DNA from: an uncultured Flavipsychrobacter sp.
Lineage (GTDB): Bacteria; Bacteroidota; Bacteroidia; Chitinophagales; Chitinophagaceae
DNA length: 64,000 nucleotides
Direction of reading: 5' to 3'
Assembly: GCA_964481425.1 (NCBI GenBank)
Contig: CAYZTM010000009.1
Location: 31,452-95,451 of the forward strand
Below the pieces are notes generated by a model, which made no database searches, was not told the origin of the DNA, and saw only the letters and a program-made list of their open reading frames with translations. Every line of letters begins with the position of its first letter. Positions within the stretch are counted from its first letter, which is position 1. The position numbers and the translations under genes were made by a program. Positions 47,587 through 61,555 of this stretch are shown here, in pieces.

Positions 47587-47665
47587 GCGGAGAGAGAGGG
47601 ATTCGAACCCCCGGACCTTTTACAGTCAACGGTTTTCAAGACCGCCGCGTTCGACCACTCTGCCA
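47587..47665 (-). pseudogene. 5'-truncated tRNA-Ser(TGA) copy, the distal att direct repeat of the island
   Basis: It is 79 nt and identical to 61470-61548 except for one base (g at 47649 versus a at 61532). It lacks the 5' acceptor strand: GGAGAGA is replaced by unrelated sequence that cannot pair with TCTCTCC. Confidence 0.9.
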
Positions 47666-47757
47666 AACCCTCTTGTTGTCCACTTGGAATTATTGTTGTT
47701 GTCCTAATGTTGGCCGCCTAAGTGCGGGTTAAAAATCATTTACTTCATTTACTGTTG

Positions 47758-48207
47758 TCATTCCAGCCTGCTAAACAATGAAACGACGGCTGTATTCATG
47801 GTCAACGATTGCCCAATAACACACCTGCCCCACCAGTAACAATCCTGCCATGACAAAACTACCTCATTGGTATCTATCATGTATCTTGCTATCCAATAGG
47901 GCACGGCATACCATTCATAAACAGTACGCTCCTTGCCAACATCACACTCCAAGCGTTCAACATCCTTTTGGATAGCTGTATTTCGCCTGTGGTGTAGTTG
48001 GTCAAGTATAGCAGCCTTCCTATCCATAAGCTGGCTGTGTGTACCTATGAATGTGCCTGTTGATAGCTTGACAGTGTGTAGATGTAGATTGTATAAACTA
48101 TTAACCATCTCCATGTGCTTATCTGCATACAGCAGACCATCTACAAGTGCTGTCTGTGGCAGGTTGAAATACCTGCATACAAATTCTTCTATGCTGGCAT
48201 GTGCCAT
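47758..48207 (-). CDS. hypothetical protein (island)
   Basis: The track ORF runs to 48369 (203 aa), but residues 4-21 are encoded by the 53-bp palindromic element at 48308-48360. I therefore prefer the start at MAHASIEEF (48207). No motif was recognised. Confidence 0.45.
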   Translation of the reverse strand: MAHASIEEFVCRYFNLPQTALVDGLLYADKHMEMVNSLYNLHLHTVKLSTGTFIGTHSQLMDRKAAILDQLHHRRNTAIQKDVERLECDVGKERTVYEWYAVPYWIARYMIDTNEVVLSWQDCYWWGRCVIGQSLTMNTAVVSLFSRLE

Positions 48208-48307
48208 TTGCTGTTTGTTTAAGGTGAACAATGTTACCTTAACCTGGGGCACCCAAGTATGGGCTGCGCCTATCAGGTGGTTTATTCTTACGTGAGGTTC
48301 GCTGTCA

Positions 48308-48360
48308 TTCGAAAGTTTTATCAGTACACCTTTACAGGTAGTCCCGACTTTTCTGTCGAA
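48308..48360 (+). repeat. 53-bp imperfect-palindrome element, copy 5 (direct orientation, left arm diverged)
   Basis: The sequence is ttcgaaagttttatc-agtacacctttacaggtagtcc-cgacttttctgtcgaa. The spacer core ACCTTTACAG resembles copy 4 (ACCTATACAG). Confidence 0.75.
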
Positions 48361-48637
48361 TAACATCATCCATAGTGATTAAAAGTGGTCGGCTAACGTG
48401 TTAAATAGCTAACCAACCACAATTAATCAACAGTTCATTTTCGTTTTCAGGGGTCTTTGAGATTTGGGAGAGGCAAGACCTTCTCAAAAGAAATCAGCGT
48501 TGCCATGAGCATCGTGCACATACTCATAGCCCAGGTAGCTGATAACAAAATACAGCACAACTCTCCTGCCATGTAACTGCTAATACGCCCGATATGCCTA
48601 ACCATACCATGCCTTGTAGGTGGGTGCTTTGTAGCAG

Positions 48638-48883
48638 TTAGAAACTGGCAACAATGGTGAAATGAGTGTGGGCGTAGATACCTGTGTTGGTGATAAACAG
48701 CAGTTGATCGTCAGGTGTAGAGGCGACCTCATCCACGTACAAGGAAACGCCTTTTTGCAGGCTCATATAGTCGTCCCTGCAGATTACCCTAAACGGTGTG
48801 TACAACTGTCGTATTCGCCCCATAGTGTTTATTATGAGGATGCTGTTACAATCCCCATAGCTGACTGTGTAGGATTGTTCCAT
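48638..48883 (-). CDS. hypothetical protein (island)
   Basis: I prefer the start at MEQSYTV (48883), which is 5 nt after the upstream stop. No motif was recognised. Confidence 0.45.
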   Translation of the reverse strand: MEQSYTVSYGDCNSILIINTMGRIRQLYTPFRVICRDDYMSLQKGVSLYVDEVASTPDDQLLFITNTGIYAHTHFTIVASF

Positions 48884-48888
48884 AGGGC

Positions 48889-59735: not shown

Positions 59736-59788
59736 TTCGAAAGAAAAGTCCTACCCACCTATACAGTATGTCCGACTTTTTTGTCGAA
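59736..59788 (+). repeat. 53-bp imperfect-palindrome element, copy 4
   Basis: The sequence is TTCGAAAGAAAAGTC-ctacccacctatacagtatgtcc-GACTTTTTTGTCGAA. Confidence 0.9.
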
Positions 59789-59964
59789 TGACTGCATAGG
59801 AAATAGGTGCAGGAGTTACCCCACACCTATTAGCCTTGACCCAGGTTCTTCCTTATTACCTACAGTGAATAAACTTGAACGGGTTGCAGATGAAATCCCA
59901 CAGTCCGATGAGGAATATTACCATGAGGATACTAAGGATGGTACGAATGATTTTTACAATGGTT

Positions 59965-61206
59965 TTAATCATCTCTCTGTTTTTGAAGGTTAACACTTTG
60001 GTTGGTTAGTTTGGCATCAAGGGCTGCCATGTCTCCGCTAATCTTAGTGTCCACAACCTTGCTATAAATCTGTGTGGTCTTGATGTTCGTGTGCCCAAGC
60101 ATTTTACTCACTGTCTCTATCGGCACTCCGTTGGAAAGTGTGATACTTGTAGCGAACGAGTGGCGTGCAATGTGGAACGTCAGCTTCTTGGTGATGCCGC
60201 ATACATCTGCAATCTCTTTCAAGTAAGCATTCATCTTTTGGTTTGAAGGAACTGGAAACACGTAGGCATTATCGGGGTTAGCTTTGGCTCTATATCGCTC
60301 AATTAGAGCCAGAGCTTGCGGCAGCAAGGGAATAGGTACCCTTGTATTCGTCTTAGTCCTGTAGGTCTGAATCCATAGCTTACCGTCAATACCCTTAGTA
60401 ATTTCCCCATGTCTTAGTTTCTTCACATCGGCATACGCCAATCCAGTGTAGCAACTGAACACGAATACATCTCTTACTTGGGTTAGTCGTGCGCTGACAA
60501 GTTCCTTAGACTGTATCAAGGTTATTTCTTCCTGCGTAAGGCACTCACGTATGACAGGCTGTAAGGTGCATTTGAAGGCTTTAAACGGGTCATGTTTCAG
60601 CCACTCCATGCCGATCCCGTAGTTAATTACCCGTTTCAAGAACTGGATGTACTTAATGGCTGTATTGTGCCCAATGTGTTCGTCCGCTTTCAAGTACAAC
60701 TCAAAGCCCATCAGGAAGCCTTTGTTAAGCTGGTCAAGGGCTATATCGCTTGCCTTGTACTGCTTACGCAGGAAGCCCTTCACTTTGAGCAATAGTGTCT
60801 CATACTTGGTATAGGTTGCTTTGCGGACTTCAATACCAACCCTACGCTTCACATAAGCGTTATGGTGATGCAGGAGCCTAATAAGATACTCTGCCTTCTC
60901 CGTGGGATTTACAAGCTTTCCCTTGATGAGTTGCGAGGTGATAGGTAAGTCCTGTTTCAAGCATTCAGCGTAGATGTCTGTCGCTTTCGCCCGATAGGTT
61001 GATAGCAACTTGTTCGCATTAAACGCCTCCTCGCTCTTACCCTTGATAACAGCCTTCGCGCTATCCCAATTTTGCTTAGTAGTTGTGATACCCAGGTTTA
61101 CTGCCTCTCGCTTGCCAGCAATGGTGATGCGCATGTAAATAGGGTACTTGTCATTTGAGCCTCGTTGGGTGTTGATGTAAAAGGAAATGTGTAATCGGTT
61201 GTCCAT
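59965..61206 (-). CDS. tyrosine-type site-specific integrase
   Basis: An N-terminal arm-binding-like domain and SAM-like core are followed by the catalytic region: ..TFHIARHSFAT.. (HxxR), GHTNIKTTQIYSKV (H..Y). I prefer the ATG at 61206 (MDNRLHISFY) over the GTG at 61224. Confidence 0.9.
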   Translation of the reverse strand: MDNRLHISFYINTQRGSNDKYPIYMRITIAGKREAVNLGITTTKQNWDSAKAVIKGKSEEAFNANKLLSTYRAKATDIYAECLKQDLPITSQLIKGKLVNPTEKAEYLIRLLHHHNAYVKRRVGIEVRKATYTKYETLLLKVKGFLRKQYKASDIALDQLNKGFLMGFELYLKADEHIGHNTAIKYIQFLKRVINYGIGMEWLKHDPFKAFKCTLQPVIRECLTQEEITLIQSKELVSARLTQVRDVFVFSCYTGLAYADVKKLRHGEITKGIDGKLWIQTYRTKTNTRVPIPLLPQALALIERYRAKANPDNAYVFPVPSNQKMNAYLKEIADVCGITKKLTFHIARHSFATSITLSNGVPIETVSKMLGHTNIKTTQIYSKVVDTKISGDMAALDAKLTNQSVNLQKQRDD

Positions 61207-61430
61207 TTGCTCTGTTTTGAGCACTTGGAAGCCGCATCATTCAGCAACAATGTATACGTGGTTGATTGACAGAGGCTAATGAGGTCTTTCTTGTTGTCCG
61301 CCTCTCGTTTGGTCTGTTGTCCTCATGTTGTCCGCTTGGCTATTCAGGCTCGAATGGGCTCGAATTATCGTGCAAAGAGCGTCATCCTCTGAAAGCCTTT
61401 ACTGACAACCATATAAGGATTCCGTAAATG

Positions 61431-61453
61431 AAAAAGAGCCACATAAGTGGCTC
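61431..61453 (-). terminator. island-borne terminator following the reconstituted tRNA-Ser
   Basis: The gagccac-ataa-gtggctc hairpin has a plus-strand A5 run, which is a T-run on the minus strand. Confidence 0.6.
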
Positions 61454-61469
61454 ATTATCAAGTAGTTAT

Positions 61470-61548
61470 GCGGAGAGAGAGGGATTCGAACCCCCGGACC
61501 TTTTACAGTCAACGGTTTTCAAGACCGCCGCATTCGACCACTCTGCCA
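61470..61548 (-). repeat. integrase-proximal att direct repeat (inside the functional tRNA-Ser)
   Basis: 78 of 79 nt are identical to 47587-47665. Confidence 0.9.
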
Positions 61549-61555
61549 TCTCTCC
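61471..61555 (-). tRNA. tRNA-Ser(TGA)
   Basis: The reverse complement reads GGAGAGATGGCAGAGTGGTCGAATGC-GGCGGTCTTGAAAACCGTT-GACTGTAAAAGGTCC-GGGGGTTCGAATCCCTC-TCTCTCCG. The acceptor stem pairs 7/7, the anticodon loop is CTTGAAA (TGA), and the long variable arm is present. Confidence 0.9.

Follow-up and report, generated by a model that had tools for sequence, protein, structure and literature searches.

Tycheposons, described in Prochlorococcus and other marine bacteria, integrate at tRNA genes, with targets that include Ser-TGA, Ala-GGC and Pro-TGG, and most of them lack packaging genes (bioRxiv 10.1101/2020.12.28.424599). The island analysed here lies in a 64-kb window (the whole stretch of DNA that was analysed). 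As in tycheposons, its tyrosine recombinase is directed at the 3′ part of a tRNA, the complete tRNA stands at one end and a fragment of it at the other, and a small integration module is combined with a module of helicase/primase type and several kilobases of variable cargo. The differences are considerable. The island comes from another phylum, its integrase, unlike those of tycheposons, belongs to the Arm-DNA-bind_5 class of Bacteroidota, and its backbone genes are unrelated: where tycheposons have pri/hel sets it has an SF2 DExH helicase, a Sak4-like AAA_24 protein and DUF3871. Tycheposon cargo serves nutrient uptake, whereas that of the island's relatives consists mainly of defence systems, and the proline target is Pro-TGG in the former and Pro-GGG in the latter. 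In architecture, tycheposon-type elements (cargo-carrying and tRNA-targeting) are the closest match, fitting better than any defined satellite family. The island has so far not been seen in vesicles or capsids.

PICIs and P4-like satellites are also small integrase islands with a repressor-type regulator and without virion genes, and the island's relatives, like them, carry variable defence cargo interspersed among conserved backbone genes. However, the island lacks pri-rep, AlpA, an Stl/Str pair, terS, Sid/Psu/Delta, cos and any other packaging or capsid-remodelling gene, and its backbone proteins are unrelated. The original prediction had called it a PICI-like satellite; as a statement of membership this fails, given that the family-defining genes (pri-rep, AlpA, Stl/Str, terS/packaging) are absent.

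The integrases of Bacteroides mobilizable transposons have the same Arm-DNA-bind_5, Phage_int_SAM_5 and Phage_integrase domains as the island's. NBU2 targets tRNA-Ser, and a BT4734-like/PriCT/DUF3987 primase is typical of NBU-type mobilizable transposons. NBU-like elements and MTnBf8 integrate beside tRNA-Ser and are typically under 15 kb (PMC13597742). The NBU type (NBU1/NBU2, MTnBf8; PMC13597742) resembles the island in size (about 10-16 kb) and in integration beside a tRNA, but its defining features, a relaxase gene (mob) and an oriT, are detectable neither in the island nor in its relatives.

Insertion site

An island of about 13.8-13.9 kb is inserted site-specifically in the 3′ part of tRNA-Ser(TGA) of a member of the Chitinophagaceae (Table 1). 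A repeat search of a 20-kb region returned one long direct repeat, the att pair, whose 79-nt copies are 78/79 identical (99%, one mismatch) at a spacing of 13,883 nt, far beyond chance. The attR copy runs from tRNA position 8 to the 3′ end, with the 5′ acceptor strand GGAGAGA swapped for unrelated sequence. A forced ARAGORN call places a tRNA there (47585-47673), yet its Rfam score is just 34.9 bits, 25 below that of the intact gene, which marks the copy as a truncated pseudo-copy. An encoded CCA follows the truncated copy and none follows the reconstituted gene. The minus-strand terminator scan found two unlike hairpin and T-run sites, one directly 3′ of each tRNA copy. The attL/attR signature read earlier from the repeat, the truncated copy and the terminators is therefore confirmed, with coordinates right within 1 nt, and the repeat, which might have vanished on re-checking, is present. 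No empty attB turned up in the searchable genome and metagenome collections, which contain no close relatives of the host, the best MsrA identity being 62-73%.

Table 1. Features of the island and its ends, with positions in the window.
Feature	Position	Strand	Evidence or remark
Original chromosomal terminator of the tRNA gene	47566-47585	-	AGGCTCCCTAACGGGAGCTT+TTTTT hairpin
attR, truncated tRNA-Ser copy	47587-47665	-	displaced original 3′ part, encoded CCA kept
Two TGTTGTCC repeats, putative arm-type sites	47674-47704	+	just inside attR; conserved in L136
p203, terminal ORF	47758-48369	-	weak phrog_26364 match, E 1e-4
Palindrome copy E	48326-48378	.	one arm degenerate; overlaps annotated p203 start
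Small conserved ORF (~80 aa in relatives)	48638-48907	-	always after DUF3871
DUF3871 protein, 331 aa	48889-49884	-	PF12987 E 1e-114
AAA_24/Sak4-like RecA-fold ATPase	49886-50797	-	PF13479 E 3e-13; phrog_1366 E 3e-75
137-aa ORF, opposite strand	50806-51219	+	GIY-YIG-like (UvrC-like) motif pattern, by eye
Conventional terminator after p134	51261-51234	-	terminator scan
p134, conserved small protein	51267-51671	-	precedes AAA_24 in most relatives
Palindrome copy D, inverted	52085-52137	.	directly 3′ of helicase stop
SF2 DExH helicase, 792 aa	52141-54519	-	ResIII E 1e-8; C-terminal domain ~380 aa
Palindrome copy A	54565-54617	.	outer edge is a mosaic breakpoint
CPA2-family cation/proton antiporter, 730 aa, cargo	54688-56880	-	Na_H_Exchanger E 1.2e-53; TIGR00932 E 9e-38
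Palindrome copy B	57119-57171	.	upstream flank of CPA2 cassette
p212, variable-region ORF	57322-57960	-	replaced by unrelated genes in L228
p190, variable-region ORF	57981-58553	-	replaced by unrelated genes in L228
p238, conserved backbone ORF	58496-59212	-	76% identical in L228-L230
p87, conserved backbone ORF	59107-59370	-	86% identical in L228-L230
XRE/Cro-C1-type HTH regulator	59427-59705	+	HTH_3 E 1.2e-15; PHROG repressor families
Palindrome copy C	59736-59788	.	between convergent int and XRE; same junction in L228-L230
Tyrosine integrase, Bacteroidota class	59965-61224	-	Arm-DNA-bind_5 + Phage_int_SAM_5 + Phage_integrase
Three direct TGTTGTCC repeats, putative arm-type sites	61292-61333	+	attL side; conserved in L228-L230
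Island-supplied intrinsic terminator of the reconstituted tRNA	61436-61453	-	GAGCCACTTATGTGGCTC+TTTTT, 7-pair hairpin
attL core copy	61470-61548	-	3′ 78 nt of intact tRNA-Ser(TGA) plus one base beyond
Intact tRNA-Ser(TGA)	61471-61555	-	ARAGORN (61470-61555), Rfam tRNA 59.9 bits

Integration, helicase and recombination genes

The predicted tyrosine integrase beside tRNA-Ser and XRE regulator in the interior are both present. The integrase ORF, 246 nt from the intact tRNA, is full length and matches its three Pfam domains at E 2e-12, 4e-15 and 3e-19 (in the order of Table 1) and phrog_1 at E 1.5e-39, with catalytic-region residues conserved in seven relatives. Five of the six TGTTGTCC matches in the window lie at the two island ends (1.97 expected window-wide), and these repeats look like putative integrase arm sites. 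The XRE gene, 96% identical in L228, diverges from the main leftward gene string. No excisionase was recognised in the island.

The SF2 helicase, likewise expected, conserves the DExH motifs GKGKT, DEIH, SAT and Q..R.R. The top Foldseek match of its AF2 model (pLDDT 88.7), and the best over the whole length, is HSV-1 UL9 (PDB 9hgi/9hgj), both proteins combining an SF2 core with a large C-terminal domain; the margin is slim (E 1e-8 versus 3e-8 to 1e-6 for generic SF2 helicases), with a TM of only 0.31-0.35 and an identity of ~10%. In L089, L091, L145 and L228 the helicase comes directly after the integrase and regulators, and it is a candidate for an origin-binding or replicative role. This island copy yielded neither a primase or Rep protein nor an origin of iteron type, so autonomous replication can only be inferred. 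The label "replication genes" of the original prediction is too firm: the helicase has no primase/Rep partner here and the AAA_24 protein is of recombination type.

That protein, correctly picked out earlier as a Sak4-like ATPase, is ~40% identical to phage "RecA-like recombination" (Sak4) proteins and belongs to the recombination type (Sak4/RecA-like). A distance of 1 nt separates its stop codon from the start of DUF3871, whose true start is an internal Met that gives 331 aa, as in homologues. In all, 6,304 DUF3871 homologues were counted. The AF2 model of DUF3871 (pLDDT 75) matches DUF932/TIGR03299 "phage/plasmid-like" proteins in BFVD, with a fold like that of viral proteins annotated as DUF932 (Foldseek E 5e-6 to 1e-3, TM <=0.62). 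Both families occur on mobile elements, but they do not match at the sequence level, Pfam at E<=10 returning DUF3871 alone. In the PDB, the model matched no capsid or relaxase structure. The ~80-aa ORF is 53-99% identical in most relatives and 39% in L141, and p134 reaches 52-90% tblastn identity in L001, L002, L088, L136, L137, L139, L142 and L228. The p13x/AAA_24/DUF3871/p80 module is conserved beside a tRNA in L001, L139, L141 and L142; in L228-L230 an nSTAND3 gene pair takes the place of AAA_24/DUF3871, so the module may itself be exchangeable cargo, not backbone. In relatives, the slot of the 137-aa ORF is taken by FRG genes or by genes for GIY-YIG homing endonucleases. The ORF itself, which had been named a GIY-YIG nuclease, shows that motif pattern only by eye and matches nothing in Pfam (even at E<=10) or in a PDB sequence search, and we do not retain the name.

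Cargo and remaining ORFs

The cargo of this island is a low-GC CPA2 antiporter and predicted envelope-type proteins. The antiporter gene forms a dip in the GC profile (35-39%) and is missing at the same position in L228-L230, and the insertion is 99% conserved. The cassette lies between two copies of a 53-nt palindrome that is specific to the island. A TAnnTTTG-type -7 box (TACCTTTG) follows copy A, 22 nt upstream of the helicase ATG; copy D has identical arms and a diverged spacer in L136. Neither p87 nor p238 has a family match at curated thresholds, p87 giving two weak sub-threshold Pfam matches only (DUF6249 and FtsX), and the probable start of p238 is MIRAI, near 59110, which would make it a signal-peptide protein of ~203 aa. 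For p190 and p212 there are no matches in Pfam, PHROGs, NCBIfam or PADLOC. The terminal p203 is 93% identical in L136, and the equivalent position in L088 gives a 25% match.

Relatives

Sequence comparison places the island, as a mosaic, in a large, widespread Bacteroidota family of small integrating islands, with a backbone of integrase, divergent XRE, SF2 DExH helicase and, at the att-distal end, the tightly coupled p134/AAA_24/DUF3871/~80-aa module. Some members have a VapE-type primase-helicase before the helicase, and mosaic breakpoints were found in the comparison with L228. The variable slots between backbone blocks hold cargo, in relatives mostly anti-phage defence systems: TIR_2, QatB + TatD, AAA_15/21, type I and type III restriction-modification, AbiC, PLD, OLD, SNF2, ThsB_TIR, nSTAND3 and SLFN. 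Relatives integrate at tRNA-Ser, -Ala, -Pro and -Gly. For example, L145 is a 13.45-kb element with an integrase, a helicase and perfect 64-nt tRNA-Ala(GGC) repeats. Three IMG/VR relatives of 8.6-11.3 kb lie between flanking repeats of 56-144 nt. In L144, from another species, MsrA and tRNA-Ser(TGA) are accompanied by an integrase (71%), XRE (59%), VapE, helicase (35%) and TIR/caspase cargo; a related integrase with different cargo thus occupies the same tRNA-Ser/MsrA locus of another species.

The stated lack of capsid, terminase, tail, relaxase and T4SS genes holds in the island across Pfam, PHROGs and NCBIfam, and extends to the 132 ORFs of 14 related elements. Transfer genes were found in none of 15 relatives, among them the repeat-bounded 13.7-kb L113. 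With no virion or conjugation genes, the island would have to travel with the help of another element.

Discussion

The best explanation, to which we assign a probability of roughly 0.7, is an integrative island in tRNA-Ser(TGA) with its own integrase, a mosaic family member for which we propose excision, replication and helper-borne transfer. Would the helper be a phage? As a true satellite with a PICI-like lifestyle, the island would be released from XRE repression by a helper phage, excise, replicate and be packaged in helper capsids. Size, integrase and a divergent XRE facing a one-directional gene string suit this reading, as do the phage-type DNA-metabolism genes (AAA_24, and homing endonucleases in relatives), the fold that DUF3871 shares with phage/plasmid DUF932 proteins, the VapE-type proteins of relatives and defence cargo typical of P4 and PICI hotspots. 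Further, 48 related loci are classed as viral in IMG/VR, and the deposited faecal "Bacteriophage sp." scaffolds include two AAA_24/DUF3871 fragments; such records are predictions or unverified scaffolds and no evidence of packaging. We consider a satellite somewhat unlikely, given that terS, capsid-size, Ppi/Rpp, AlpA and cos/pac features are missing from the island and 14 relatives, DUF3871 was found in no isolated phage, no phage homologue of the helicase was found and the palindrome has no match in IMG/VR. A decayed prophage could have left the integrase, XRE regulator, phage-like AAA_24 and tRNA att site, but neither remnants nor pseudogenes of structural, lysis or terminase genes were found, and the same compact architecture in many independent att-bounded elements would not be expected from random decay, which makes this origin extremely improbable.

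Conjugal transfer with a co-resident CTn/ICE, through an oriT, and perhaps a relaxase, that escaped recognition, would make the island an NBU-type mobilizable transposon (IME). This accords with the integrase domain set, the tRNA-Ser-adjacent integration, the BT4734-like/PriCT/DUF3987 primase of one relative and the RadC and resolvase genes seen in relatives. It is nevertheless distinctly unlikely: no Relaxase or MobC match occurs in the island or in the family summaries for the relatives' 132 ORFs, the island's ORFs without assigned function are <=238 aa, the DUF3871 model did not match relaxase structures and the sole plasmid-like relative is typed as non-mobilizable by MOB-suite. Alternatively, an old integration may have left the island as a fixed relic that has lost its mobility and is kept for its cargo. 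The att copies differ by one mismatch, no excisionase is recognised and an ISL3 element has inserted in the left end of a close relative. L136, a copy found in another sample, is 94% identical and has the same island/tRNA-fragment junction (its contig ends within the repeat); this speaks for the integration but also fits vertical inheritance of an island that is no longer mobile. However, the integrase is full length with its catalytic-region residues conserved, both ends keep intact arm repeats, every backbone ORF is open, and mosaic exchange and the low-GC, 99%-conserved CPA2 insertion indicate recent recombination activity; a relic is thus unlikely.

For an integrative island with helper-borne transfer, we propose that its own Bacteroidota-type tyrosine integrase directed its entry at the 3′ part of tRNA-Ser(TGA) in the chromosome, the island bringing a replacement tRNA 3′ end and terminator, with the original 3′ part and terminator displaced by 13.9 kb. 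XRE derepression may lead to excision as a circle, which would be copied with the help of the helicase as an origin-binding or unwinding protein, and the Sak4-like/DUF3871 module may aid recombination or the establishment of incoming DNA. Travel would be with help from another element, phage or conjugative. Such elements had been called poorly described in Chitinophaga/Sphingobacteria-like Bacteroidota, and in the literature searched DUF3871 indeed occurs in one paper only, as a table entry; in Bacteroidota, this island family is essentially undescribed.

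An island bounded by two copies of a tRNA-Ser gene

The element is a bounded, site-specific integrative island. Its ends are formed by a 79-nt direct repeat (78/79 identical, copies 13,883 nt apart), the sole long repeat within the surrounding 20 kb. One copy belongs to an intact tRNA-Ser(TGA) gene that scores 59.9 bits against the Rfam tRNA model. The low-coordinate copy, at 34.9 bits, runs from tRNA position 8 through the 3' end and an encoded CCA, with its 7-base 5' acceptor strand swapped for unrelated DNA; it is a truncated copy and no second gene. A hairpin and T-run, different in each case, lies directly 3' of each copy. 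This layout is what integration through an attP that includes a tRNA 3' part would leave behind at the chromosomal gene: element DNA would have completed the tRNA-Ser gene, and the 3' part first present there, with its terminator, would now lie at the far end of the island.

The integrase adjoining the intact tRNA aligns end to end with seven relatives and conserves the residues of the R/K/H/R/H/Y regions; family-wide, TGL[AS][YF] replaces the canonical first arginine motif of the catalytic region. The recombination module looks intact and functional. Six occurrences of the octamer TGTTGTCC were counted in the 64-kb window, where 1.97 would be expected; five of them lie just inside the island ends in one orientation. 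The motifs are also present in the close relatives L136 and L228-L230, and they are probably arm-type binding sites for the integrase N-terminal domain. No excisionase was identified in the window island. In L229 the left end is interrupted (65-1400) by an ISL3-family insertion sequence, which separates the integrase arm repeats from the position where the tRNA is expected.

Both halves of the arrangement anticipated by the original prediction, a tRNA-Ser repeat with its own terminators bracketing the island and a tyrosine integrase beside the intact tRNA, are thus borne out. They are the features of tRNA-targeting, tyrosine-recombinase integrative islands: a full and partial tRNA repeat, and an intact recombinase adjoining the intact tRNA. 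To ARAGORN the truncated att copy passes for a complete tRNA-Ser; an annotation that relied on this call would conceal where the island ends or overcount tRNAs.

An exact search of genome contigs for the empty-site pattern (intact tRNA plus encoded CCA) gave 0 matches. Searches of genome and metagenome contigs anchored on MsrA, the gene beside tRNA-Ser outside the island, recovered distant relatives only (≤73% identity), and none has the left-flank genes in common with the window. A Flavipsychrobacter locus (L006) keeps the tRNA-Ser/MsrA pair without an integrase, yet its downstream sequence is unrelated, so it is no proof of an empty site.

Features of the island and its borders, listed from the integrase end
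Feature	Position (strand)	Details
SocA/Panacea antitoxin-domain protein	62632-63192	two genes outside the island; adjoins MsrA
Intact tRNA-Ser(TGA)	61470-61555 (-)	ARAGORN; 61471-61555 with the Rfam model
attL copy of 79-nt repeat	61470-61548
Terminator of intact tRNA	61453-61436 (-)
TGTTGTCC octamers inside attL	61292, 61315, 61326	cluster spans 61292-61333
Integrase	59965-61224 (-)	Arm-DNA-bind_5, Phage_int_SAM_5, Phage_integrase (Pfam); PHROG match
Palindrome copy C	59736-59788
XRE regulator		strand opposite to main string; HTH_3, E 1e-15
p87		predicted membrane or secreted protein
p238	58496-59212	predicted membrane or secreted protein; longest ORF
p190, p212		function not assigned; after p87/p238
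Palindrome copy B	57119-57171
CPA2 antiporter, 730 aa	54688-56880	Na_H_Exchanger, E 1e-53
Palindrome copy A	54565-54617
SF2 helicase, 792 aa		ResIII, E 1e-8
Palindrome copy D	52085-52137
p134		between helicase and 137-aa ORF
137-aa ORF	50806-51219	opposite strand
AAA_24		E 3e-13; phrog_1366, E 3e-75
DUF3871	48889-49980	longest ORF; E 1e-114
Small ORF, ~80 aa		after DUF3871
Palindrome copy E	48326-48378
p203		last ORF
TGTTGTCC octamers inside attR	47674, 47697	cluster spans 47674-47704
attR copy of 79-nt repeat	47587-47665	truncated tRNA-Ser
Full tRNA-Ser reported by ARAGORN	47585-47673
Terminator of truncated tRNA	47585-47566 (-)

Gene content and predicted functions

Profile searches of all island ORFs against Pfam, PHROGs and NCBIfam gave no match to capsid, portal, terminase, tail, lysis, relaxase, coupling-protein or T4SS families, nor to primase, D5_N or Rep families. 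This agrees with the earlier statement that capsid, terminase, tail, relaxase and T4SS genes are absent. PADLOC had no match for any island protein. Three ORFs (51595-51804, 51949-52110 and 48447-48732) are probably not genes, their translated peptides being implausible. The longest-ORF start of p238 lies too far upstream; a start at MIRAI is more probable, and the resulting protein of ~203 aa would have a signal peptide like its L228 counterpart.

The GKGKT, DEIH, SAT and Q..R.R motifs of the helicase are conserved across 36 homologues. Among whole-length structural matches of its model (pLDDT 88.7), the HSV-1 origin-binding protein UL9 in complex with OriS ranks first (E 1e-8, TM 0.31-0.35; structural matches of the island proteins are weak to moderate). 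Generic SF2 helicases follow close behind, so an origin-binding role is suggested only. Neither iterons nor origin-type tandem repeats were found in the island, and no origin was identified. AAA_24 is ~40% identical to ‘RecA-like recombination and repair’ proteins of Erwinia and Acinetobacter phages, and we therefore regard it as a Sak4-type recombination protein, not a replicative one. Of the replication genes and Sak4-like ATPase originally proposed, the Sak4 assignment stands, but AAA_24 drops out as a replicative protein.

DUF3871 homologues are 328-336 aa long (about 331), which indicates that the longest ORF begins too far upstream and that translation starts at an internal Met (49884) located 1 nt from where AAA_24 stops. 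The AlphaFold model (mean pLDDT 75) has no significant Foldseek match in the PDB, and thus no capsid-like or relaxase-like fold is seen. It does match viral proteins annotated as DUF932 or ‘phage/plasmid-like protein TIGR03299’ (E 5e-6 to 1e-3; TM up to 0.62). In the searchable literature, DUF3871 appears in one paper only, as a table entry beside an integrase in B. thetaiotaomicron. PDB sequence searches with DUF3871, AAA_24 and the helicase gave nothing useful, and the 137-aa ORF likewise has no PDB sequence match and no GIY-YIG domain in Pfam at E ≤ 10. A UvrC-like GVY...YIGKA...R...E...N pattern is visible in it by eye. This ORF is the GIY-YIG nuclease originally proposed, and it is a candidate only. 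GIY-YIG homing endonucleases are present in relatives, in one of which (L113) the gene lies downstream of a VapE-like gene.

Mosaic structure and a recurrent palindrome

A copy of the island at 94% identity (L136) was found in another sequencing run, with the same junction between island and tRNA fragment; its contig ends inside the repeat. Three close mosaic relatives (L228-L230) have in common with the window the integrase (88%), XRE regulator (96%), p87, p238, helicase (83%) and p134 (87%). In these, p190/p212 are replaced by other genes, the CPA2 gene is absent, and an nSTAND3 gene pair takes the place of AAA_24/DUF3871. DNA homology between the window and L228 ends at 58495 (the p238 stop), restarts at 54620 and ends at 51235 (the terminator after p134), so the AAA_24/DUF3871 module is separable. 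The nSTAND3 gene and its 691-aa partner (about 8395-11228 in L228-L230) are a candidate defence pair.

Judging from these comparisons, the CPA2 gene is an insertion peculiar to the lineage of the window island. Its identity to the L136 copy is 99%, versus 91-97% for neighbouring genes, and its GC content is 35-39% versus about 45% across the remaining island. Two direct copies of a 53-nt palindrome (A and B) bracket it; in L228-L230 there is one copy and no CPA2 gene. It looks like a recently inserted cassette. An integron origin is not supported by the integrase: the scores of the integron-integrase models, 54.8 and 40.8 bits, are below the respective cut-offs (265 and 435) and come from the C-terminal segment only.

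The palindrome, present in five copies, consists of 16-nt arms (TTCGAAAGAAAAGTCG and its complement) around a 21-nt spacer, with 37 nt from one arm start to the next. Half-sites match eight times in the 64-kb window, each time within the island, versus 0.32 matches expected. The copies separate the island into blocks: integrase, XRE to p212, CPA2, helicase, p134 to p80, and p203. In L228-L230 the palindrome follows the integrase and occurs on both sides of the helicase, and the outer edge of copy A coincides with one of the homology breakpoints with L228. Between relatives the arms are conserved and the spacer varies: copy D has identical arms in the window and L136, with 11 differing spacer positions. 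The palindrome was found in none of the first 135 loci retrieved and has no match in IMG/VR, and more distant relatives have no analogous multi-copy palindrome. Possible roles are as a site bound by the helicase or a regulator, as a recombination junction, or as an unusual terminator. A simple terminator is a weakened reading, given that a conventional terminator already precedes copy B and that the stems are A/T-rich with 21-nt loops; a promoter fits copy A only.

A large family with tRNA-gene targets and variable cargo

The window island is one of a large family of mosaic elements whose targets are tRNA genes and whose cargo varies. Among the candidates scored there were 6,304 DUF3871 homologues, with Flavipsychrobacter and Taibaiella among the named sources. 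Eight DUF3871 neighbourhoods have the same end module (p13x, a variable opposite-strand gene such as FRG, AAA_24, DUF3871 and p80), followed in four of them by a tRNA (Gly-CCC, Ser-TGA and, twice, Pro-GGG). Upstream of the end module lie defence genes: TIR_2, QatB to TatD, AAA_15/AAA_21, type III and type I restriction-modification, AbiC, PLD and PD-(D/E)XK proteins, OLD-type nucleases and SNF2 helicases.

The helicase family is smaller (65 matches), and the helicase comes directly after the integrase and regulators. One locus (L144) has the order MsrA, tRNA-Ser(TGA), integrase (71% identical to the window's), XRE, VapE-like protein and helicase, then three ThsB_TIR genes and a caspase-like protease. 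Another (L145) is a 13.45-kb element between perfect 64-nt repeats of the 3' part of tRNA-Ala(GGC). Among IMG/VR records, which like virome records are predictions, 48 loci are related. In many of these the integrase is followed on one strand by two or three genes without assignment, then by a helicase with weak DEAD similarity, in some cases AAA_24, and DUF3871; in three, flanking repeats of 56-144 nt delimit 8.6-11.3 kb. No virion or conjugation family ranks among the most frequent Pfam and PHROG families of 132 ORFs from 14 relatives, which do have RadC, resolvase, GIY-YIG homing endonucleases, VapE, SIR2 and SLFN.

Two relatives occupy whole IMG/VR contigs. In L113 (13,743 bp), both ends are one 83-nt sequence of tRNA 3' end plus terminator, and the genes encode an integrase, p130, AAA_24, DUF3871, VapE, a GIY-YIG/NUMOD1 endonuclease and a DNA methylase, with nothing recognisable for transfer. 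The identical 104-nt ends of L129 (14,396 bp) are the 5' end of a lipoprotein gene. We do not take such ends as proof of circles; they are att-type sequences and equally fit an assembly break at att repeats. Contigs of this type can pass mistakenly for complete viral genomes with terminal repeats. The sole DUF3871 matches in the phage collection are two ~4-kb unverified ‘Bacteriophage sp.’ scaffolds from human faeces, one with AAA_24 and DUF3871 (MT839478.1) and one with a partial DUF3871 match only (MT840031.1). A 15.5-kb circular sequence annotated as a plasmid of Bacteroides finegoldii (‘plasmid 58’, NZ_OY725960.1) encodes two integrases, DUF3871, a resolvase and an Eco57I-type restriction-modification enzyme; instead of a plasmid, this could be an island relative in its excised form, or the name may be an assembly label.

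Relation to known elements and possible lifestyle

So, what kind of element is this? The satellite/PICI-like label initially attached to it is not supported as far as PICI membership goes, as the defining pri-rep and packaging genes were not found. The island has no pri-rep module (primase, D5_N, Rep) and no iterons; no ORF matches terS, ppi, cpm, rpp or capsid genes in Pfam, PHROGs or NCBIfam, and no PICI packaging or capsid-redirection genes are among the most frequent families of the 132 relatives' ORFs. As to a PICI-type regulator pair beside the integrase, AlpA is absent, and one XRE gene, divergent from the main gene string, is at most a candidate repressor. A P4-like satellite is rejected given no PHROG or Pfam match for alpha (primase-helicase), sid, psu, delta or epsilon, and no cos. 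A prophage or its remnant is likewise contradicted by the lack of head, tail, terminase and lysis genes or pseudogenes, and by a DUF3871 model without a capsid-like match. With NBU-type mobilizable transposons the island has in common a Bacteroidota-type integrase and insertion at a tRNA 3' end (PMC13597742). Hallmarks of that class are a relaxase (mob) gene and an oriT, but neither the island nor its relatives have a Relaxase or MobC match, which argues against this class and against an IME. The architecture most resembles, without implying membership, that of cargo-carrying tycheposons, which combine a tyrosine recombinase, a tRNA and partial tRNA, a helicase/primase-type module and cargo, most without packaging genes (bioRxiv 10.1101/2020.12.28.424599). 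The island matches this in its recombinase, tRNA pair, helicase/primase-type module, variable cargo and lack of packaging genes, and differs in having an unrelated backbone and in belonging to a different phylum.

We suggest that excision and replication would depend on the XRE switch and helicase, that the Sak4-like/DUF3871 module may act in recombination or establishment, and that transfer would depend on another element. This helper may be a phage or a conjugative element, and the data do not settle which. Phage-type genes, the VapE genes found in relatives and the cargo of defence genes point rather to a satellite-like life. A conjugative route stays plausible given that packaging functions are missing altogether and that integrase and target are NBU-like. 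A still bolder reading sees in the island a so far unnamed, phylum-wide Bacteroidota class of ‘defence carriers’ that replicate themselves but depend on a helper. An SF2 helicase of origin-binding type and a Sak4-like/DUF3871 recombination module would define the class, whose own single-strand-annealing machinery, in this lineage, would swap cassettes such as CPA2 at the 53-nt palindromes as cargo-swap junctions. As a whole, we consider this joint reading unlikely, at a probability of roughly 15%.

Much gene flow is now attributed to small integrating islands with defence or niche genes that rely on outside help for travel, and the named examples come mostly from Proteobacteria, Firmicutes and cyanobacteria. 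The window island, clean and bounded at both ends, exemplifies a family apparently very common in Bacteroidota (>6,300 DUF3871 proteins, from soil Chitinophagaceae to gut Bacteroides). The integrase, 79-nt att site and putative arm sites are a possible integration tool for Chitinophagaceae. Cargo in the relatives checked consists mostly of restriction, TIR, Qat, Abi, OLD and STAND-type defence genes, and defining the family would provide a new anchor for defence-system discovery in Bacteroidota and candidate functions for two domains, DUF3871 and the helicase C-terminal domain.
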